Shown one piece after another: positions 11,160 through 21,361 of a DNA stretch of 64,000 nucleotides. Every line of letters starts with the position of its first letter. Position 1 is the first letter of the stretch. The position numbers and the translations under genes are program-made. The notes under the pieces are model-generated. The model searched no databases, was not told the origin of the DNA, and saw nothing but the letters and a program-made list of their open reading frames with translations. Where the stretch lies: NCBI GenBank assembly GCA_027315065.1, contig DAHUYT010000004.1, positions 803-64,802 on the forward strand, given 5' to 3'. The stretch comes from Nitrososphaerota archaeon. GTDB taxonomy: Archaea; Thermoproteota; Nitrososphaeria; Nitrososphaerales; Nitrosopumilaceae.

Positions 11160-11810
11160 ATGTTAGCAATTTTCGATGTTGAGGGCGTATTACTTGATGC
11201 GGAATTCCTTCCAATTTTGGCAGAAAAAATCAACAAACAAGATGAGATCTGGGAAATTACAAGAAAAGGAATCGAAGGAATAATCAACTGGGAAGAAGGA
11301 TTAAAGAAAAGAATAGATCTTCTCAAAGGAATAAACTACGAAACTTGTACAGAGGTTGCCAATTCGCTTAGGATTATGACAGGTGCAAGAGAGGCATGTT
11401 ATGCTCTCAAGGCAGCCGGCTGGAAATTGATGGCAGTGTCTGGAGGATTCACTATAATGACTGATAGGTTACGAGAAGAACTGGGACTGGATTATGTCTT
11501 CTCAAACGATCTAATTTTCAAAAACGGTAAACTTGATGGCGTGGTAATAAATGTGGATTCTGATAAAGCTAGATCAGCTATATTAAAGATACGGGAATGG
11601 AAAGAAAAAAAGGAGGACATAGTAGTTGTTGTTGACGGTGCAAATGACGTGAAGTTGTTTGATATATGTGGGCTAGGTGTGGCGTTTAGAGCACAAGATG
11701 TTGTAAAAGACTTAGCCACTGTAACCTTGGAAGAGAAAGATCTCTCAAAACTAATCGATATAATCAATACCCATTATGGGCTAAAGATACAGTTGCAAAC
11801 TGTGGCCTGA
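11160..11810 (+). CDS. serB: Phosphoserine phosphatase (HAD)
   Basis: FDVEGVL HAD motif I, VSGGF, DGAND. Confidence 0.85.
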   Translation: MLAIFDVEGVLLDAEFLPILAEKINKQDEIWEITRKGIEGIINWEEGLKKRIDLLKGINYETCTEVANSLRIMTGAREACYALKAAGWKLMAVSGGFTIMTDRLREELGLDYVFSNDLIFKNGKLDGVVINVDSDKARSAILKIREWKEKKEDIVVVVDGANDVKLFDICGLGVAFRAQDVVKDLATVTLEEKDLSKLIDIINTHYGLKIQLQTVA

Positions 11811-11851: not shown

Positions 11852-12592
11852 ATGGCATTAGAGATTATTCCAGTGCATCTTGAAAATGAAATCAAATCAG
11901 GTGATGATCTGATTGAGTTGATGATTATGTCAAAATCTGGCCCGAGTATACACGATGGAGACATTCTTGTTTTTACGCAAAAAATTATCTCAAAACAAGA
12001 AGGACGAGTTGTGAATCTTTCAAATATTAAACCTACCCTTCTTGCCATTGGTATATCTAGTGAGTACAGAAAAGATCCGCGAATTATGCAATTGATACTT
12101 GATCAATCAAAACGCATAATCAGAATGCATGATGGTATAATAATTTCAGAAACAATTCACGGTTTTATCTGCGCAAATGCAGGTGTGGATGAAAGTAATG
12201 TGGAAGAGGGTTATGCGGTTTTATTGCCAAATGATGCTGATGCGTCAGCTGAGGCATTATGTAGGCAAGTAAAAGAAAAGACTGGAAAAAACACAGCTGT
12301 TGTTATATCCGATACGTTTGGACGCCCATTTAGGCAAGGCCAAACTAATGTAGCCGTGGGGATTTCTGGAATTGTAGCCGTATTGGATTATGCTGGAAAA
12401 AAAGATGTCTTTGGAAGGACTCTTCGCGTGACTTCTATTGCTGTAGTAGATGAAATATGCTCAGCCGCTGAACTTGTTATGGGTAAATCATTTCACGTGC
12501 CTATATCTATAGTGAGAAATTATCATTTTAATAATGCCAAAAACACCATGAATGATCTTATTAGACCGCATTCTGAAGACCTATTTAGGTAA
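11852..12592 (+). CDS. cofE: Coenzyme F420-0:L-glutamate ligase
   Basis: KIISKQEGR, ANAGVDESN, SDTFGRPFR.G. Confidence 0.92.
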   Translation: MALEIIPVHLENEIKSGDDLIELMIMSKSGPSIHDGDILVFTQKIISKQEGRVVNLSNIKPTLLAIGISSEYRKDPRIMQLILDQSKRIIRMHDGIIISETIHGFICANAGVDESNVEEGYAVLLPNDADASAEALCRQVKEKTGKNTAVVISDTFGRPFRQGQTNVAVGISGIVAVLDYAGKKDVFGRTLRVTSIAVVDEICSAAELVMGKSFHVPISIVRNYHFNNAKNTMNDLIRPHSEDLFR

Positions 12593-12647
12593 GCAAAAAT
12601 TTTTGAAAACAAAGATTATATTCATAGATTGAGAGAAGCGATAAACA

Positions 12648-13568
12648 TTGGATGATCTACGGGCCGAACTACACTGTCACAATGAGTTTTCAAATTTTCA
12701 ACTCGGTTTAAAAGAAACACCATATGATTGTGGTATAACAGTACAAGAACAATTGGAACAAGCATACAAAGCAGGGCTAGATGTGCTCTTTATTACGAAT
12801 CATAATACATTAGATGGATACAACCAGCTTTTAGATTACAAAGAAAACCATGAAAAATTCAAAAACATCCAAGTCTATCCCGGCGAAGAAATTACAACCG
12901 ATCAAGGAATACACGTGTTAACATATGGATTAACCAAGACGATAAGGCCAGGTCAAAGTTTTGAGGAAATACTTGATGTAATAAAATCCCAAGACGCTGT
13001 TTCTTGTGCACCTCATCCTTTTGCACTAAATAATGGGCTTCGAGAAAAGTCTATTCACTGTGATCTGATTGAAGTATTTAATAGCAATAATGTTGATAGA
13101 TACTCAAACCTAAGAGCTTCCTATTTTGCAAAAGCAAACAATATGATAGAAGTAGCAGGAAGTGATTCTCATGTTGTTTCCACACTAGGTAGATGTGTTG
13201 ATGTTATTCAGGCTGAAAATACCCTTGATAATGTGTTACGAGAAATGAGAAAAGGGAAAATTACGATTGGCAATACTGGTTATATCACTAGCAAAGAAAT
13301 GATAGAGCACGCAAAATACAAAATTGCTAACTCAAAAGATGATATCATGATGTATTTCCAAGAAAACCACCCTCATCTAACTGGTGTTTGTAGTTTTCTA
13401 ATCGATGTGTTTGAATCAAACCCTGACAGTATGGTTTGGAGAGCGGTATATCAAATAGCAGTGCGCCTTACTACAAAGTTATCGAACAAAATTAATTTCA
13501 AAAATCAAGATTATAACATATTATATGAGCGTAATCTCAGAGCAATATTGCCAATGATTCTGACTTGA
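12648..13568 (+). CDS. PHP-domain metallophosphoesterase-like protein
   Basis: ELHCH, ITNHN, GEEI, HPF, GSDSH metal ligands. Confidence 0.82.
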   Translation: MDDLRAELHCHNEFSNFQLGLKETPYDCGITVQEQLEQAYKAGLDVLFITNHNTLDGYNQLLDYKENHEKFKNIQVYPGEEITTDQGIHVLTYGLTKTIRPGQSFEEILDVIKSQDAVSCAPHPFALNNGLREKSIHCDLIEVFNSNNVDRYSNLRASYFAKANNMIEVAGSDSHVVSTLGRCVDVIQAENTLDNVLREMRKGKITIGNTGYITSKEMIEHAKYKIANSKDDIMMYFQENHPHLTGVCSFLIDVFESNPDSMVWRAVYQIAVRLTTKLSNKINFKNQDYNILYERNLRAILPMILT

Positions 13569-13638: not shown

Positions 13639-13878
13639 ATTTCAGAATTATCTCCAACCAAGACAATCGATGTTCGAGGAATGTTCTGTCCGGAACCTGT
13701 CTTTAGAACAAAGATCGAGATGGAAAAAATGACCGTAGGAAATATCCTAAAAATCATTGCAGATGATCCTGCATCTGAGGAAGACATCTCTAGGTGGGTA
13801 AACAGAAATGGACATCAATTGCTTGGCATCAACAAATCTGGTAAAGACCTTGAATTTACAATTAAGAAGGCGAAGTAG
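13639..13878 (+). CDS. tusA: TusA/SirA-family sulfurtransferase
   Basis: IDVRGMFCPEP and DDP..EEDI motifs. The IDVRG part lies upstream of the first ATG (13681), so the start is placed tentatively at ATT 13639. Confidence 0.82.
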   Translation: MSELSPTKTIDVRGMFCPEPVFRTKIEMEKMTVGNILKIIADDPASEEDISRWVNRNGHQLLGINKSGKDLEFTIKKAK

Positions 13879-13881
13879 GTT

Positions 13882-14883
13882 TTGGCTACCAAGGCAATAA
13901 ATGATGCAGAGGAGGTTTTGAAAAAAATTGGTAATACGCCTATTGTGAAACTAAACTCCATTTCAAACAGTCAGGTAGAGTTTTACGCGAAATTAGAATC
14001 TCATAATCCATTTGGTTCTGTAAAAGACAGAGCGGCGTTTTGGATGGTGAAAATGGCAGAAGAAAAGGGTCTCATAAAAAGGGGATCTAGTGTGATAATT
14101 GAACCGACATCGGGAAATACTGGAATTGCACTTGCAGGAATCGCAAAACTTCTTGGATATAAAGTAGAAATCGTAATACCTGAAAAGGCAAGCGATGAAA
14201 CGAAGAAGATAATCGAATCTTTGGGAGCTATCATATATCAAACAAGCGATGATCTGTGCCCAAAAGTTGGGGCTGGCACAGATCAGAGTATCGCGCTGGC
14301 AAAATCTATCGCATCATCACGACCTGACAAATACTATTTTCCTAATCAGTATTCCAATGAAGCAAATTTCATGGGTCATTACAAGGGCACAGGTCCTGAG
14401 ATTTGGGCTCAGACAAAAGGAAAGATAACTCATTTCTTTTCAGGCGTTGGAACTGGTGGAACTATAACTGGAATAGGTGCGTATTTGAAAGAGAAAGATC
14501 AGAACATAAAAATTATCGCAGTACAACCACAACAAAATCACTTGATTCAAGGTCTAAGAAATTTTGAGGAATCTGCAAAACCTGATCTCTTTTTAAAACG
14601 TGAGCAGGCAGTTGATGATTGGATTACAATTACAAATGATGAAGCATTTGTTGCAGTAAAAGAGATATTTGAAAAGGAAAGAATGCTAGTTAGTCCATCC
14701 TCTGCTACGGTATATGCTGCAATGAAAAAATATGGTATTGAAAAGGGACATGTGGTTGGAATATTTGCTGATGATGGTAGAAAGTTCAAGAGTCTTTATA
14801 TTCAGCAAAAAATATTTACTGACCAAGAATTCGATAAGGCATTACAAGAGGCAAAATACCTTTCACCCACTCAGTTTTCCTAA
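13882..14883 (+). CDS. cysM: PLP-dependent cysteine synthase family protein (CysK/CysM/OPSS)
   Basis: IGNTP, NPFGSVKDR (PLP Lys), EPTSGNTG, GVGTGGT. Confidence 0.85.
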   Translation: MATKAINDAEEVLKKIGNTPIVKLNSISNSQVEFYAKLESHNPFGSVKDRAAFWMVKMAEEKGLIKRGSSVIIEPTSGNTGIALAGIAKLLGYKVEIVIPEKASDETKKIIESLGAIIYQTSDDLCPKVGAGTDQSIALAKSIASSRPDKYYFPNQYSNEANFMGHYKGTGPEIWAQTKGKITHFFSGVGTGGTITGIGAYLKEKDQNIKIIAVQPQQNHLIQGLRNFEESAKPDLFLKREQAVDDWITITNDEAFVAVKEIFEKERMLVSPSSATVYAAMKKYGIEKGHVVGIFADDGRKFKSLYIQQKIFTDQEFDKALQEAKYLSPTQFS

Positions 14884-15852
14884 CTACTTTCTTCTGTTTT
14901 CTGACAAATACTTATCAACATCTATTGCAGCCATGCAGCCAAATCCTGCCGCAGTAATTGCCTGTCTATATCTGTGATCATGTACATCGCCAGCAGCAAA
15001 GATTCCCTCTATGCTGGTGTATGTGTGGTTTTTGAGTACTATGTAGTCCTGCTCGTCTAACTCTATTTGACCTTTGAACAGGTTGGTATTTGGTTCATGA
15101 CCTATTGCAACGAATAAACCGCCGACATCCATTATATTTTGCTGGTTTGTTGTTACATTCCTTATCATAATTTGGTTTACTTTTTGGCTTCCTTTGATTT
15201 CATCTATTACAGAATTCCAATGGAATTTGATCTTGTTATTTTCAAATGCTCTATCCTGCATTATTTTACTTGCCCTAAGCGTATCTTTTCTATGTATGAT
15301 GTGAACATTTTTGGCAAATTTAGTAAGGAATATGGCTTCTTCTATGGCAGAATCTCCGCCGCCTACCACCACTATTTCCTGATTCTTGAAAAACGGACCG
15401 TCACAAGTAGCACAATATGATACTCCCTTGGCACTAAATTCTTGCTCTCCTTTTGCGCCTAGTTTTCTAGGGCTTGCGCCAGTTGCAATTATGACGGCAT
15501 CTGCCTCATATTCCTCTGCATATGTTAATACCTTGAATGGCTTTCTTCTAAAATCTACATTTACTACCTCATCATCAATTATTGTAGCACCCATCCTCTC
15601 AGTCTGTTTTCTCATTATAGTCATCAACTCCGGACCTAGAATACCATCTGAAAAACCCGGATAATTTTCAACTTCTGTAGTAAGCATTAATTGTCCCCCC
15701 GGTAACATTCCTGAGATCACTAGGGTATCACGTTTGGCTCTTGCTGTGTAAATGGCCGCAGTATATCCAGAAGGACCTGCTCCAATTATTATCACATCAA
15801 ATTTTTTCTTTGTTTCTGGTTTGTTACTCTCTGCTCTAATTTCTGCCTGCAC
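14884..15852 (-). CDS. trxB: Thioredoxin-disulfide reductase
   Basis: GAGPSG, CATC redox motif, GGGDSA, FAAGD. Confidence 0.95.
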   Translation of the reverse strand: MQAEIRAESNKPETKKKFDVIIIGAGPSGYTAAIYTARAKRDTLVISGMLPGGQLMLTTEVENYPGFSDGILGPELMTIMRKQTERMGATIIDDEVVNVDFRRKPFKVLTYAEEYEADAVIIATGASPRKLGAKGEQEFSAKGVSYCATCDGPFFKNQEIVVVGGGDSAIEEAIFLTKFAKNVHIIHRKDTLRASKIMQDRAFENNKIKFHWNSVIDEIKGSQKVNQIMIRNVTTNQQNIMDVGGLFVAIGHEPNTNLFKGQIELDEQDYIVLKNHTYTSIEGIFAAGDVHDHRYRQAITAAGFGCMAAIDVDKYLSENRRK

Positions 15853-15897
15853 AAATAAAATTCATTTATAATTCATATTTAAATTATGCACTGGTTT

Positions 15898-16671
15898 TTA
15901 GAGATTATCAAGTATGTTTTGATGCTGATCACATAACTTTCCAATTTCTATTTGTGCATACAAAAGATCTTCTTGCCAGTGTGCATTGTACAACATACAT
16001 TTCCTTGACTCGCAAAAAGGAGACCCTGTAAGATAGTAGAACATGGCTTGTAACGCATATCCTCTAGTAACCAAACTTATCCTCTCGTCATAATATTCTA
16101 GAAATCTTCCCTTGAATTCTTGTTTAATTGTATCTAGATTCAGGCCATGTAAAATTTTTTTGTATATCTGTAGATAATAATCACGAGGTTTTGCTGGTGC
16201 TTCAATCATACCTGTAGTGGAAATGATGGCTGGGTTAGAACATATGACGACTCTACCATGATATCTATAATCGTTATAATCATAACTACAAGTCAATCTT
16301 GTTGTAAATATGAGATGGAATTTATCTACTGATGATTCTGAATCTGGTATGATGTCTCTGAAAATATTTTGAATCTCAAAACCATCGTACAAAATAATAT
16401 TGTCTGATGCTGAGTCTGTTGTTTCTGATTGTTCTTCGAATGTTGTTTCTTCAACTGTAGGTTTATGCCTCTCAAAAGGTATGTAAGGGTTAAAAATTCT
16501 ACATGAGGCTAACTGTTGAAATGTTTTTTCTTTTGCATGAAAATGCCGGAGGAATTCTTGTCGTACTTCTGTATTTATTCCAGTCTGTTTTTGTATGAAT
16601 TCTGCAAGGTCGTTGATCTTAATCTCAGGCACAGACGGTGCATCATACAAAAATAGTTTAGATATACTCAA
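15898..16671 (-). CDS. Hypothetical protein, archaemetzincin-like/DUF6775-like
   Basis: FC..RKCMLYNAHWQE Cys pattern resembles the archaemetzincin C-terminus; no HExxH motif. Confidence 0.6.
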   Translation of the reverse strand: MSISKLFLYDAPSVPEIKINDLAEFIQKQTGINTEVRQEFLRHFHAKEKTFQQLASCRIFNPYIPFERHKPTVEETTFEEQSETTDSASDNIILYDGFEIQNIFRDIIPDSESSVDKFHLIFTTRLTCSYDYNDYRYHGRVVICSNPAIISTTGMIEAPAKPRDYYLQIYKKILHGLNLDTIKQEFKGRFLEYYDERISLVTRGYALQAMFYYLTGSPFCESRKCMLYNAHWQEDLLYAQIEIGKLCDQHQNILDNL

Positions 16672-16694
16672 TAACGTATCTGGTCCGAATTGAT

Positions 16695-17513
16695 TTATCT
16701 TCTTAACTCTTTTATTTTAGATGCTGTGATCTCAGCTGCTTTCTTGCCTGATAACAACATTGAACCATATGTTGGACCCATTCTTGCTATGCCATATGTC
16801 TCTGTTACGGACATGCCTGTAGCCACAAGCCCAGGATAGACTTCACCTGTATGGTATACTACTTTGTCCTCCCCATCATCTACCCACATTGGATCCATGC
16901 CTTTCCAATCGATAAGCTTCCTGTCCACCAGTCTCTTTATGGCTACTGAATCATGACCTGATGCATCTATGACCATCTTGGATTCTAAAGCAACTGGGTC
17001 AACACAAGTTATATTTCTTGGAAGAGCTGATACTGGCATCCAATTCACTACGATACCACCTACTCTTCCATTCTTTAATATCAAATCATCAAATTTTGTC
17101 AGATTCAAGAATTTTACCCCAGCATCACAAGACGCAGCTATTAATTTCGAAACTGCATGTGGTCCCGGTGTAAGATAAAGCCCATCTCTTACCTTCTTAT
17201 AGGGAATTCCTAATTCATCCCAAATCTTTTGTGCCGGAGATCTTACTGTTACTGGATTCATCATGTATCCTCCCAGCCAATATCCGCCCCCAAGGTAATT
17301 GTTTTGTTCTATGACTAAAATTCTGAATCCCATCAACGCGAGTTCTCTGCTTGCGGTCAAACCTGCCGGGCCTGCACCTATGATTATTACATCAGAGTCT
17401 GCTCTGTCTATGAGTACTGAATGAAATTCATCGGCAATTGCTCGCGTGATCTCTTTCTCATCAACATCTGCAAATATTTTAGGCACTTCTTCTTTCTGGT
17501 TGGCCTTTTGCAT
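16695..17513 (-). CDS. thi4: Thiazole synthase Thi4 (Cys-containing type)
   Basis: GAGPAGL, GGGYWLGG, CVDP, DASGHD, RMGPTYGSMLLSG. Confidence 0.92.
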   Translation of the reverse strand: MQKANQKEEVPKIFADVDEKEITRAIADEFHSVLIDRADSDVIIIGAGPAGLTASRELALMGFRILVIEQNNYLGGGYWLGGYMMNPVTVRSPAQKIWDELGIPYKKVRDGLYLTPGPHAVSKLIAASCDAGVKFLNLTKFDDLILKNGRVGGIVVNWMPVSALPRNITCVDPVALESKMVIDASGHDSVAIKRLVDRKLIDWKGMDPMWVDDGEDKVVYHTGEVYPGLVATGMSVTETYGIARMGPTYGSMLLSGKKAAEITASKIKELRR

Positions 17514-17549
17514 GAAAAATATCCTTAGGACAGCACATTAATAGTTTGC

Positions 17550-18569
17550 TCAGTTTAAAAACGCGTCTTCAAATGATTTGACACATTCTCTTATGTGTGT
17601 CTTTTTTGTTGGATTCTTAAACGCATAAGTCGAAATAATATCTATTTTTGTAAGATCCTTTCTAGTTAATACGCCCTTTGCAGCTCTGAGTGCGTCTAAT
17701 ATCACATTGCATCCATTTGTACTATCGTTTGTTCTAAGTGACAGATCTATTTCTATTGTTGAACCAAGAAATCCTTTGGCTTCCATCCAATAATAACTAA
17801 CTCTGGAATCCCCAAGCTGCTCTGCATATTCTGTAGTACCTGCAGTAGAACTGAAGGGATATGTTGTTTCAATTGCGATAGATTCTGTCTTACTATTTCT
17901 CTTTTTTTCTCTTATCTCCTCAGCCATTGTATTCATGGTATCTTGATTTCCTCCGACATCAAGTTGATATGCTTTCTGGATCTTGATACCTCGATTTGTC
18001 ATAAAGTCTATCATTCCGCGATGAAAGGCAGTACCACCAAATTGACTCATCAAATCATCTCCTAGAATCATTAATCCTTTTGTCTCAAATGCTTTTTTTG
18101 TCTTGTCGGTTACGGTTTTGGAAGACGTGGCATTAAAAAACGAACAGCCTGCATCCAATGCAGCATCCGAATATTTTTCCGATGTCTTATCCAGTCCAGA
18201 AGAAATAACATTAACGAGAAAATCCGGATTATCTGTCTTGAGGGATCTGACAAATTCATCATAACTTACAGATTTTATGTGTCCACTATGGGTAATATGG
18301 GAAGGTACTGGATCTGACATTATTCCGGATTGGATTATAATGTCTGAAAAACCTGTTTTATGATCTGTGATCAATTGACCGATTTTTTTTCCCACTTTGG
18401 AAGGATCTATGTCAAAAACTGCTGATACTGATATATCGTTAGGAGTTAATCCTGAAATCTTTGGGTGCCAAAGTCCCTCGGTTGAGTTCTTGTAGTGTTC
18501 CAAACCTTTTACAAGAGTTAATGCCACATTGCCGCTTCCAGCAATAGCAATCTTGATTTTATCCGGCAC
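17550..18569 (-). CDS. Divergent inositol-3-phosphate synthase (Ino1)-like protein
   Basis: AGSGNVA NAD motif, AVFDID, GDDLMSQ.GGT, YQLDVGGN, DS.N; usual catalytic lysines altered. Confidence 0.75.
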   Translation of the reverse strand: MPDKIKIAIAGSGNVALTLVKGLEHYKNSTEGLWHPKISGLTPNDISVSAVFDIDPSKVGKKIGQLITDHKTGFSDIIIQSGIMSDPVPSHITHSGHIKSVSYDEFVRSLKTDNPDFLVNVISSGLDKTSEKYSDAALDAGCSFFNATSSKTVTDKTKKAFETKGLMILGDDLMSQFGGTAFHRGMIDFMTNRGIKIQKAYQLDVGGNQDTMNTMAEEIREKKRNSKTESIAIETTYPFSSTAGTTEYAEQLGDSRVSYYWMEAKGFLGSTIEIDLSLRTNDSTNGCNVILDALRAAKGVLTRKDLTKIDIISTYAFKNPTKKTHIRECVKSFEDAFLN

Positions 18570-18591
18570 ACAATTTTTTCTTGCCGATCTT

Positions 18592-18607
18592 CATTTAACT
18601 CTTTTCT
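18592..18607 (-). promoter_or_regulatory. BRE-TATA of the Ino1-like gene (probably leaderless)
   Basis: Minus strand reads AGAAAAGAG-TTAAAT about 23 nt upstream of the GTG at 18569. Confidence 0.5.
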
Positions 18608-18726
18608 GATGTTATTAGTAGAAAAGAACTCTTTTCTTGATGAAATCAGCCTTTTGATGTGTATTCTAGGTGGAAAATCTTGCCAGTATCTCTTTGGCTA
18701 GTACATATCTGATGTCTAGTTTAAAA

Positions 18727-18734
18727 TTTATATG
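18727..18734 (+). promoter_or_regulatory. TATA box of the sulfite reductase-rhodanese unit (probably leaderless)
   Basis: TTTATATG about 25 nt before the TTG start at 18759. Confidence 0.5.
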
Positions 18735-18758
18735 CACTTCGAAAAGTAGCTACAATAA

Positions 18759-20564
18759 TTGAGCAAGACAAGCCTTTCTCAGTCTAGACCAGATAACCAT
18801 CCAAAACCCAAGATACAATGGGGTCGTCTAGAGGAAGCTGAAAAATTTGCAGAAATGGTAAAACTCTTCAGACAAAACAAGATTAGCCGTGATGATCTAC
18901 GAAGATTTAGACTTCAACATGGTGCATATGGTAGCCGAATGACTGATGATTATAGTATGATTCGTGTAAAAATTCCGGCTGGGGAATTATATCCAATTCA
19001 GATCGAAAAAATGGCAGAACTAAGCGAATCATTTTCAATTGGAAGCGCACACGTTTCTACAAGACAAAATTTCCAACTTCACTGGGTTGCACTGGAAGAT
19101 GTTTCTGAGGTTATGCGAGGACTGACAGAAGTTGGTTTAACGTCAAGAGAAGCATGTGGTAACTCTGTAAGAAATGTAATGTGTAGCCCTCTTGCAGGTG
19201 TATGCCCTGATGAAATATTTGATCCTACTCCATATGCTTTGTCGACAGCAAAGTTTCTACTACGAAATTCTATGAATCAATCGCTCCCAAGAAAATTCAA
19301 GATCAATTATACGTGTTGTGAGAAACATGGAATGGCAAGAATAGTGGATGTTGGTATTATACCAAAAAGAACAGAAATTAACGGAAAAATCCAGAATGGA
19401 TTCAAGGTCTTCTTAGGCGGTGGGCTTGGTGCCCAATCATTTGTGGGACATCAGCTTGAAGAATTTACTCTAGAAGAAGATTTACTCTACACAATAATTG
19501 CGGTCATCCGAGTCTATGATAGGATGGGTAATCGCGAAAATATGGCAAGAAATAGGATGCGGTATCTCGTTAATGAACTTGGGTGGGAAAAATTCCAAAA
19601 CATTGTGCTAAAAGAAAGAACAATGACAAGACTGACACAATCTGTTGTAATAAAACTTGATCTTGACAAGACTCCTGAAGTATTGCATAAAATTTCAATT
19701 AGCTCAGAAACTCCATCGCCTCCACCGGGGTTATCTAGATGGCTCAAAACTAATACCATGAAGCAAAAGCAACAAGGTTATAGTGTAGCGTTCATTACGC
19801 TAGAGTCCGGTGATATCACTGCAAGTCAATTACGGGCCGTTGCTGCTATGGCTAGGGACTTTTCCGCAGAGGGAAGAATTAGAAATGGATTTGCTCAAGA
19901 TATCGTATTCCGATGGGTACGAGAAGAAGATCTTCCAAAACTCTATGCCAGATTGCTAGACGTTGGTCTTGCAAATCCTGGTGCGTTGACTATGGCCTCA
20001 GTTGTGGGATGTTCTGGAACCACCTCGTGTAATCTAGCATTGACTAATTCACACAGACTAGCAAAAGAAGTTCAAAGAAAATTCCTCGAGTTAAAACTTG
20101 ATGAAGATGATGACCTGAGAGATTCCACAATCAAGATAAGCGGATGTCCAAATTCATGCGGTCAACATGAGATAGCGACAATTGGATTTTATGGCGGGGG
20201 AGGAAGATTGGGCAAGGACATGTATCCGTTGTATACCATGTCGCTAGGTGGAAGGGCAGACGAAAACTCAATGCTGGGATTGATGACAACCAAGGTTCCT
20301 ACGAAGAGGGTCATCCCAACAATCTTGAAAATAATTGAGATCTTCAAATCCGAAAAAAGATCTGGCGAAGTTCTGGATTCTTGGATTCGTCGAGTTATTG
20401 AAGGAAATGGCGGACCTAGGGTTAAATCTGTAAATGATATCAAGGAATTGGTAAAGCCCATTGTAGCACCCCCTACAATTGAGCAAGACCCAGACTTTTA
20501 CGTCGATTATGGGAACGATGAAAGTTATCATGCAAAAACTGGAAGGGGCGAATGTGCTGCTTGA
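18759..20564 (+). CDS. Siroheme/4Fe-4S sulfite/nitrite reductase (assimilatory)
   Basis: TRQNFQLH, CGNSVRN, PRKFKI, CSGTTSCN and GCPNSCG ligands. Confidence 0.9.
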   Translation: MSKTSLSQSRPDNHPKPKIQWGRLEEAEKFAEMVKLFRQNKISRDDLRRFRLQHGAYGSRMTDDYSMIRVKIPAGELYPIQIEKMAELSESFSIGSAHVSTRQNFQLHWVALEDVSEVMRGLTEVGLTSREACGNSVRNVMCSPLAGVCPDEIFDPTPYALSTAKFLLRNSMNQSLPRKFKINYTCCEKHGMARIVDVGIIPKRTEINGKIQNGFKVFLGGGLGAQSFVGHQLEEFTLEEDLLYTIIAVIRVYDRMGNRENMARNRMRYLVNELGWEKFQNIVLKERTMTRLTQSVVIKLDLDKTPEVLHKISISSETPSPPPGLSRWLKTNTMKQKQQGYSVAFITLESGDITASQLRAVAAMARDFSAEGRIRNGFAQDIVFRWVREEDLPKLYARLLDVGLANPGALTMASVVGCSGTTSCNLALTNSHRLAKEVQRKFLELKLDEDDDLRDSTIKISGCPNSCGQHEIATIGFYGGGGRLGKDMYPLYTMSLGGRADENSMLGLMTTKVPTKRVIPTILKIIEIFKSEKRSGEVLDSWIRRVIEGNGGPRVKSVNDIKELVKPIVAPPTIEQDPDFYVDYGNDESYHAKTGRGECAA

Positions 20565-21361
20565 GCAAAGAAAAGATTACAAGAGTAACCATTGACGCTG
20601 ATACCTTACGATCGGAGATTAGGGACAAGAGCGTCAAGGTACTTGACATAAGAAAAGAACCAGATTACAAACAAGGGCATGTACCAGGGGCAATTAATTT
20701 TCCATTATCTAGTCTTCTTTCTGACGACAGTCCAGAAATGATTCTTCAACATGTGCAGTCTTTTGGTATTGATGATGAAACACACGTTGTTGTCTATGAC
20801 GACACATTTGGCGCCTTGGCGTCGCGTGTAGCGTGGGCACTTCAGTATATTGGTCATGAAGGAGTTTCTCTATTGGATATTACATACGGATCGTGGAAAA
20901 AACTCGGACTTGAAACTAGTCTTGAATCTCCATCTCTTGGAAAGAAACCACATTCTCTAAATCTACAACCGCAAATTCTTGCAACTGCTGATTATCTCAT
21001 GCCTGCCAGAGAGGAAGGTGTCATATTGATGGATAATAGGGAGAGATTGAACTTTCTTGAACATCATATTCCTGGTGCTATTAACATTCCATATAGAATG
21101 CTTGCCTCTGCTCAGAATATACTAAGATCAAAAGATGAATTGAGGAGGCTTCTACATAATAGAAACATATCTTCTAACTCTGAGGTGGTTACATATTGTG
21201 GCAGTGTGGGCACTCTTTCAGGATTGGGGTATTATGCATTAAAGTCAATAGGAATTCAAAATGTAAAACTTTACGTTCGTTCGTTTAAGGAATGGGAGTC
21301 ATTAGAAAAACCAATTGAAAAACAAAAAGATGCAAACTATTGGGATCTCTCGGCAGAATAA
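20561..21361 (+). CDS. Tandem-domain rhodanese (thiosulfate/mercaptopyruvate sulfurtransferase)
   Basis: GHVPGA, YDD (inactive N-domain), HIPGA, YCGS active Cys. TTG at 20561 overlaps the upstream TGA stop. Confidence 0.85.
   Translation: MSKEKITRVTIDADTLRSEIRDKSVKVLDIRKEPDYKQGHVPGAINFPLSSLLSDDSPEMILQHVQSFGIDDETHVVVYDDTFGALASRVAWALQYIGHEGVSLLDITYGSWKKLGLETSLESPSLGKKPHSLNLQPQILATADYLMPAREEGVILMDNRERLNFLEHHIPGAINIPYRMLASAQNILRSKDELRRLLHNRNISSNSEVVTYCGSVGTLSGLGYYALKSIGIQNVKLYVRSFKEWESLEKPIEKQKDANYWDLSAE

Follow-up and report, generated by a model that had tools for sequence, protein, structure and literature searches.

A conserved tusA-cysteine synthase gene pair and a possible variant of carrier-dependent cysteine synthesis in ammonia-oxidizing archaea

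The CysM-type branch of the pyridoxal phosphate (PLP)-dependent cysteine synthase family is known to accept bulky sulfur donors: Mycobacterium tuberculosis CysM uses the thiocarboxylate of the carrier protein CysO together with O-phosphoserine, and Escherichia coli CysM uses thiosulfate. Among archaea, the O-phosphoserine sulfhydrylase of Aeropyrum pernix, an organism without the CysE route, combines O-phosphoserine with sulfide. Here, we analyzed a 64,000-nucleotide stretch (the window) on contig C44 of the 1.74-Mb genome of a Nitrosotalea-like ammonia-oxidizing archaeon (AOA), in which a gene for the sulfur carrier TusA precedes a gene for a CysM-type cysteine synthase (hereafter the synthase), not far from a second pair encoding a sulfite reductase (Sir) and a two-domain rhodanese. 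AOA are among the most abundant microbes of soils and oceans, and no bench studies of their cysteine synthesis were found in the literature. A reading of the window from its sequence (the original prediction) had proposed a persulfide relay from thiosulfate via the rhodanese and TusA to the synthase, with sulfite recycled by Sir and free sulfide avoided. Our data indicated that tusA and the synthase gene form a conserved two-gene unit of AOA within an island that serves the final steps of sulfate assimilation, and that a variant of carrier-dependent cysteine synthesis is possible in these archaea; nothing in the analysis points to thiosulfate.

The evidence for this unit came mainly from the coordinates of matches in a 151-genome sample of the class, of which 87 genomes formed the AOA subset. 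With a threshold of E 1e-125 or better for synthase orthologues, tusA was located immediately upstream and on the same strand in 76 of 76 AOA genomes with an orthologue (including one unpublished genome, G132), spread over three families that all belong to the taxonomic order of the window. The linkage on which the original prediction had staked itself is thus strictly conserved. An independent scan of species genomes yielded 14 further AOA-type loci with enough flanking sequence, all with tusA upstream, whereas none of 64 canonical CysK loci, taken from other phyla of bacteria and archaea, had TusA encoded within ~6 kb. Sir and the rhodanese were present in all 87 AOA genomes and adjacent in 85; at the same thresholds, the remaining families of the class yielded neither. 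A distance of 5-11 kb, which includes thi4 and trxB, separates the two pairs in most Nitrosopumilaceae. The pairs of the two other AOA families are unlinked, yet tusA, the synthase gene and trxB remain together, and in G120 the tusA-synthase pair persists with the Sir-rhodanese pair 1.5 Mb away. Collectively, the conservation of these gene pairs lies far beyond chance.

The synthase carries the motifs SVKDR (with the PLP lysine), TSGNTG (substrate loop) and GTGGT (phosphate loop), all invariant in our alignment of homologues (A2), and matches solved cysteine synthases with E values down to about 1e-52. It represents a separate subfamily, because the cut-offs of the curated NCBIfam cysM equivalogs are not reached (TIGR01138, 264 against 394; NF008735, 243 against 413); indeed, it falls below all curated cysteine synthase cut-offs, with the cysKM and cysM models matching only at sub-threshold level. 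By its loop and an aligned Arg, the enzyme is CysM-type. Canonical CysK homologues of sister lineages carry a ten-residue insertion after the phosphate loop, where the synthase has a short loop; the alignment of QPQQNHLIQGLRNFEES with QPEEGSSIPGIRRWPTEY of 2jc3 and 2bhs is free of gaps, and QGLRN is paired with GIRRW of E. coli and Salmonella CysM, which puts an Arg at the position of E. coli CysM R210. The overall match to these two enzymes has E values of about 1e-49 to 1e-51, but the AOA protein has an additional invariant loop Cys and a C-terminal tail. This Cys belongs to an insertion, D-D-L-C-P-[KR]-V-G, that every AOA copy carries and that also occurs outside AOA, in several 50%-identity clusters. 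The insertion reads DDLCPKVGAG in the window, and the extra Cys loop noticed in the original prediction is indeed present: Cys126 is conserved without exception in the 21 homologues aligned (lowest identity 42%), and 78 of 120 close homologues have no other Cys. The insertion takes the place, by alignment, of a stretch that reads "KGMKG" in plant and bacterial enzymes and that we take to line the active-site entrance, so that Cys126 may be situated at the active-site mouth. In one genome (G124:C22:16364-17314), the synthase orthologue is interrupted by an in-frame TAA and may be a pseudogene on its way to loss.

O-phosphoserine is the predicted substrate of the synthase. In five AOA genomes, no CysE candidate passed the cut-off of its family (the highest score was 38 bits, against 210), which makes O-acetylserine an unlikely substrate, and serB, encoding phosphoserine phosphatase, is a conserved neighbor; on both grounds the use of O-phosphoserine, already suggested in the original prediction, is plausible, and the enzyme is probably an O-phosphoserine sulfhydrylase. 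SerB, which competes with the synthase for O-phosphoserine, is encoded next to tusA in Nitrosopumilaceae-type loci (1.8 kb upstream in the window, where about 2 kb had been estimated) and by a divergent neighbor in the Nitrososphaera-type locus L007. Outside AOA, one member of the DDLCP-type subfamily adjoins cysS, which supports a role of the subfamily in cysteine synthesis.

The assignment of TusA was clear from PF01206 (77.4 bits against a gathering score of 28.6) and from the motif D-x2-G-x2-C-P-E-P. A genome-wide profile scan gave 90.8 bits over profile positions 1-70, starting from window position 13660, and revealed no second TusA in the genome. As the original prediction had stated, only 3 nt separate the two genes: tusA ends with TAG at 13876-13878 and the synthase gene begins with TTG at 13882. 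The start of tusA had been placed less securely, since the codon at 13639 is ATT. The sole canonical in-frame start is the ATG at 13681, with no in-frame ATG, GTG or TTG upstream of it; it lies two codons ahead of the catalytic Cys, and its use would delete beta-strand 1. The candidate starts are therefore ATA 13633, ATT 13639 and ATG 13681. The GTG start of Nitrosotalea relatives (L010, L017) corresponds to GCG in the tusA gene of the window, and a similar loss of the start was observed in locus L018.

A partnership between the two proteins was also suggested by the surface of TusA. In 31 synthase-bearing AOA, the helices flanking the Cys (PEPVFRTKIE and DISRWV.R.GH) were nearly invariant: changes affected 0.2 of 10 and 0.7 of 9 positions, whereas the rest of the protein showed 8.5 changed positions of 31. 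In the one large synthase-less clade both helices were remodeled (5.3 of 10 and 4.1 of 9 positions changed). Within this clade, a small-genome genus (~1.1-1.3 Mb), the single member of 45 that keeps the synthase also keeps the TusA helices, and all 15 synthase-less members that were read have both helices remodeled, in several different ways. As a cause of this surface change, loss of a NifS-like gene was considered and rejected, since some genomes with a diverged TusA still carry NifS. Structure prediction of a complex of the synthase, PLP and TusA scored 0.57, while the best of three controls reached 0.00, with prediction runs agreeing in at least 95% of contacts and a partner pLDDT (predicted local distance difference test) of at least 85. 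Of 80 solved complexes, 58 reached the mark passed by this prediction, as did 2 of 110 mismatched pairs, although passes at a score of 0.60 or under comprised only 7 of the same 80 solved complexes together with both mismatches; the prediction thus lends weak support to the TusA-synthase link.

The origin of the sulfur was examined through the remaining genes. Sat and CysH are encoded together on contig C27 of the same genome, and Sir is its only NirA/Sir-type (siroheme reductase) gene. Sir does not reach the equivalog cut-offs for either NirA or Sir, and sulfite rather than nitrite is taken as its substrate from the context of sulfate assimilation. With Sat, CysH and this single Sir, sulfite can be obtained from sulfate; sulfate assimilation is complete, and sulfite need not come from thiosulfate. 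No YeeE-type (YeeE/Sulf_transp) thiosulfate importer was found in the five AOA genomes. The rhodanese appears to be of the mercaptopyruvate rather than the thiosulfate type: its active-site loop, C-G-S-V-G-T, does not have the cationic C-R-K-G-V-T-A signature of thiosulfate sulfurtransferases, and among solved structures the protein is closest to E. coli SseA (1urh; E 1.7e-20). The match to NF008557 is 85 bits with a cut-off of 250, and the loop resembles but differs from the mercaptopyruvate sulfurtransferase signature C-G-[ST]-G-V-T. Thiosulfate as the sulfur source, the starting point of the original prediction, was therefore not supported, and neither was a rhodanese splitting thiosulfate; the remainder of the proposed relay was partly upheld by the TusA-synthase link, the CysM type of the enzyme and the weakly supported complex.

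The overlap of the rhodanese start with the Sir stop codon was borne out and amounts to 13 nt. In G148, a long open frame over the rhodanese suggested a Sir-rhodanese fusion, which was rejected, as two genes overlap there in different frames. In G149 (L005:1739-6322), two sulfite reductase copies (64% and 62% identical to that of the window) flank the rhodanese gene. Between the two pairs of the window, trxB and thi4 occur as described in the original prediction. The Thi4 motif is ASGHD, with Ser and no Cys at the position where we presume the sacrificial Cys of yeast Thi4 to lie. Since Thi4 is of the sulfide-dependent type, free sulfide is presumably made in the cell anyway.

Eleven of the 87 AOA genomes retain TusA and have no synthase. 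Examples are G086, G115, G148, G149 and G056 (loci L002-L006), and in the small-genome genus of G086, 43 of 45 genomes were without the AOA-type synthase, and one further member, G182, contained only a 36%-identical CysK-like match with an in-frame TGA. A large pelagic genus and several other AOA lineages have no recognizable cysteine synthase at all. The two synthase-less genomes tested of these 11, G086 and G115, keep Sat, CysH, Sir and the rhodanese, and a search for another cysteine route in these two genomes turned up neither a further CysK-like PALP gene nor a true enzyme of the Cys_Met_Meta_PP (Cys/Met-metabolism PLP) family. AOA are also without PF01053 enzymes. A further sulfur system was located on contig C3 of G000 (L102:3525-6060), where a threonine synthase-family (ThrC-like) gene of 405 aa is followed after 2 nt by a ThiS/MoaD-ThiF fusion of 438 aa. 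This pair was kept in five of five AOA genomes, synthase-less ones included, and it looks like a carrier-dependent homocysteine synthase of the MetM/MetO type, a homocysteine route listed in PMC13759103. The fusion has no rhodanese domain and would need a sulfur donor in trans. The two ThiS-family matches of the genome lie on contigs C3 and C7, one being this ThiF fusion and the other a stand-alone open reading frame (ORF) of 92 aa, and several cysteine desulfurase homologues are encoded. On contig C9 (L137:1107-4335 in G000), larC and larE share an operon with the gene for a NifS-type cysteine desulfurase, which suggests that a nickel-pincer cofactor is made with its own sulfur supply; in the small-genome genus, 33 of 45 genomes, many of them incomplete, yielded no match to this desulfurase.

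We tentatively favor a reading, quite possible though short of probable, in which TusA delivers sulfur directly to the CysM-type synthase acting with O-phosphoserine. Sulfate would be reduced via Sat, CysH and Sir; the synthase would form aminoacrylate from O-phosphoserine; and the sulfur nucleophile would be, at least in part, the persulfide on the single Cys of TusA, with Cys126 possibly assisting the transfer. The attack of the persulfide would leave a TusA-S-S-cysteine mixed disulfide, which could be resolved either by thioredoxin with the neighboring TrxB or by sulfide, TusA being reloaded in the latter case. TusA would serve at least one further client, and the Sir-linked rhodanese would act as a second persulfide carrier. 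Several observations weigh against this reading. A persulfide contains S(0) while Sir produces sulfide, so that an oxidant or an exchange cycle must be assumed, and we know of no biochemical precedent for TusA as a sulfur donor to a CysK/CysM enzyme. TusA occurs in all 87 AOA genomes and the synthase in only 76, with the synthase gene cleanly missing between tusA and trxB in the others; since TusA persists where the synthase was lost, it must have at least one other client. Eight synthase-less genomes belonging to four other genera have kept the helices of TusA as they are, and the co-evolution signal is for this reason a matter of one clade or event. The complex score falls within the band that the prediction tool rates as more often wrong than right, and DDLCP-type synthases outside AOA have no neighboring TusA. 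Moreover, in a sister lineage within the class that is not AOA (L015:1612-7415, G005), an operon comprises cysK, a SAT-like gene (a 349-aa hexapeptide transferase), a class-V aminotransferase (cysteine desulfurase), thiF, tusA and dsrE, which fits a TusA acting downstream of cysteine, in the classical direction from cysteine to persulfide.

An ordinary arrangement is nearly as likely as direct delivery by TusA and is its main rival. Here, the synthase would be a CysM-type O-phosphoserine/O-acetylserine sulfhydrylase using free sulfide from Sir, located beside general sulfur carriers; a cysteine desulfurase would load TusA or the rhodanese, from which sulfur would pass to E1-activated ThiS/MoaD-type proteins and to tRNA thiolation, and the genes would be neighbors only through common sulfur-dependent regulation. 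The universality of TusA but not of the synthase, the several desulfurase homologues, the ThrC-like and ThiS/MoaD-ThiF system with its need for a donor in trans, the sister-lineage operon and the free sulfide implied by Thi4 all fit such a division of labor. It accounts less readily for the strict head-to-tail adjacency of tusA and the synthase gene, within a few nucleotides across three families and amid rearranged neighborhoods, which exceeds the usual effect of shared regulation, or for the remodeled TusA surface in a clade without the synthase; the support from complex prediction is also weak rather than nil. The claim of a dedicated relay without free sulfide is accordingly weakened by the 11 genomes that keep TusA alone and by Thi4, while its premise of a conserved linkage stands.

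Other schemes seem far less probable. A fully sulfide-free assimilation, in which sulfur would pass from Sir to a translationally coupled rhodanese, then as a persulfide to TusA and on to a CysM-type O-phosphoserine enzyme, with thioredoxin resolving the TusA-cysteine disulfide, is unlikely; if true, it would be a persulfide counterpart of CysO-CysM and would shield the copper-rich enzymes of AOA from sulfide. Slightly less credible still is a channeled reduction, an assimilatory counterpart of DsrC in dissimilatory sulfite reduction, in which the rhodanese would take persulfide-level sulfur directly from Sir and hand it via TusA to the synthase, with no release of free sulfide. The overlap of the Sir stop with the rhodanese start in 85 of 87 AOA genomes speaks for it, as do the NirA/Sir-rhodanese fusions reported in Halobacteria (PMC11237513). 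However, a search of longer proteins yielded no fusion of Sir with a related rhodanese, although this counts as weak evidence; a sulfide-dependent Thi4 is encoded next door; and no biochemical precedent is known for an assimilatory Sir acting in this way. The full thiosulfate scheme, with the rhodanese splitting thiosulfate, the persulfide passing via TusA to the synthase and Sir recycling the sulfite, can be given very little credence. It draws on the conservation of both pairs and their proximity in most Nitrosopumilaceae, and on TusA-family proteins reported to bind or decompose thiosulfate (YeeD, PMC11073785; Metallosphaera TusA, PMC4175335), but it is opposed by the supply of sulfite from sulfate, the failure to find an importer in five AOA genomes, the SseA-like rhodanese and the unlinked pairs of the other two families. 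We regard as equally improbable a route through S-sulfocysteine as in E. coli CysM, in which thiosulfate and activated serine would be joined, thioredoxin and TrxB would cleave the product to cysteine and sulfite for reduction by Sir, and TusA would merely handle thiosulfate. The loop Arg aligned with E. coli R210, the convergent trxB abutting the synthase gene and, as weak evidence, the automatic annotation of homologues as "S-sulfo-L-cysteine synthase" would agree with this route; complete sulfate assimilation and the failure to find a thiosulfate importer would not, and it leaves the invariant loop Cys and a persulfide carrier without a role.

Compared with the CysO-CysM(-Mec) system of M. 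tuberculosis, the AOA locus shares a short-loop CysM-type PLP enzyme, a small sulfur-carrier gene beside the synthase gene and the likely use of O-phosphoserine; actinobacterial-looking representatives (YGLRNVDEGFVPE) have an Arg in a GLRN-like motif, as does the AOA synthase. However, the AOA carrier is TusA, a PF01206 protein of the Cys persulfide kind, and not a ThiS/MoaD beta-grasp protein with a Gly-Gly thiocarboxylate. Neither an E1 nor a Mec gene is found at the AOA locus, which places it outside the M. tuberculosis type, the DDLCP insertion is specific to the AOA-type subfamily, and attack by a persulfide would give a mixed disulfide requiring reduction rather than an acyl adduct requiring hydrolysis. 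A TusA-like domain was detected in none of 150 synthase-family representatives with a small purpose-built hidden Markov model; in one representative (P0245), an N-terminal extension with Gly-Gly at its end resembles, as judged by eye, a ThiS/MoaD-type (CysO-like) domain. The A. pernix enzyme belongs to another branch, was not among the best 60 solved relatives of the AOA synthase and has no known carrier partner. With the E. coli IscS-TusA-TusBCD-TusE-MnmA relay and the DsrE/TusA proteins of sulfur oxidizers, the AOA carrier shares the TusA fold and the CPxP Cys, and dsrE-tusA pairs occur in sister lineages (in L013 and L014, ~2 kb from a canonical cysK). Its neighbor in AOA is instead a cysteine synthase gene, and no DsrE/TusBCD homologue that could serve as its partner was found in the Nitrosopumilaceae genomes tested. 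The eukaryotic Nfs1-Tum1-Uba4-Urm1 pathway, a model for the ordinary arrangement, likewise combines a two-domain mercaptopyruvate-type rhodanese with an E1-activated ubiquitin-like carrier, encoded elsewhere in the AOA genome, but the AOA rhodanese gene is coupled to that of a sulfite reductase, not of an E1.

If TusA indeed feeds the synthase, CysO-CysM would be joined by a second kind of cysteine synthesis dependent on a carrier protein, and TusA would have its first biosynthetic client that is an amino acid synthase. Our full-text literature search found no paper on the tusA-synthase pair, and PMC11237513 and PMC13325395, as far as they were searched, hold no mention of it in AOA. The Sir-rhodanese and Thi4-DUF6775 links have already been noted in comparative genomics (PMC11237513, PMC13325395): the NirA/Sir-rhodanese proteins of Halobacteria are fused, whereas those of AOA are encoded by separate overlapping genes, and Thi4-DUF6775-sulfur gene clusters have been described in PMC13325395.

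Table 1. Coordinates in the window of the genes at the tusA-synthase locus, with the family evidence for each
Feature	Position	Strand	Family evidence
SerB phosphoserine phosphatase	11160..11810	+	TIGR00338, 163.9 bits (cut-off 144)
TusA sulfur carrier, ~79 aa, single Cys in CPEP motif	13639..13878 (start uncertain)	+	PF01206
CysM-type PLP-dependent cysteine synthase, probable O-phosphoserine sulfhydrylase, insertion DDLCPKVG (Cys126)	13882..14883	+	PALP, 240 bits
Thioredoxin reductase TrxB	14884..15852	-	TIGR01292, 429.7 bits (cut-off 343.45)
DUF6775, probable metallopeptidase	15898..16671	-	PF20565, 306 bits
Thi4 thiazole synthase, non-suicide sulfide-dependent type	16695..17513	-	TIGR00292, 218 bits (cut-off 148)
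MIPS-like gene, no evident sulfur role	17550..18569	-	PF01658, 84 bits
Siroheme/4Fe-4S sulfite reductase, NirA/Sir family	18759..20564	+	NIR_SIR x2 and NIR_SIR_ferr x2
Two-domain rhodanese, active-site loop CGSVGT	20552..21361	+	PF00581 x2

The gene order was read from the ORF listing and family scans (Table 1), and the nearest homologues of the window proteins were labeled Nitrosotalea or Thaumarchaeota by their sources. The interval between the two pairs is filled by trxB, DUF6775, thi4 and the MIPS-like gene, all on the minus strand. TrxB is encoded tail-to-tail with the synthase at zero gap, and the trio of tusA, the synthase gene and trxB was also present in loci L007, L009, L010 and L011. 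The MIPS-like gene was missing from this position in several related loci. Between serB and tusA (11852-13568), an F420:gamma-glutamyl ligase gene is followed by that of a PHP-family hydrolase, and the former is kept at the same position across AOA families.

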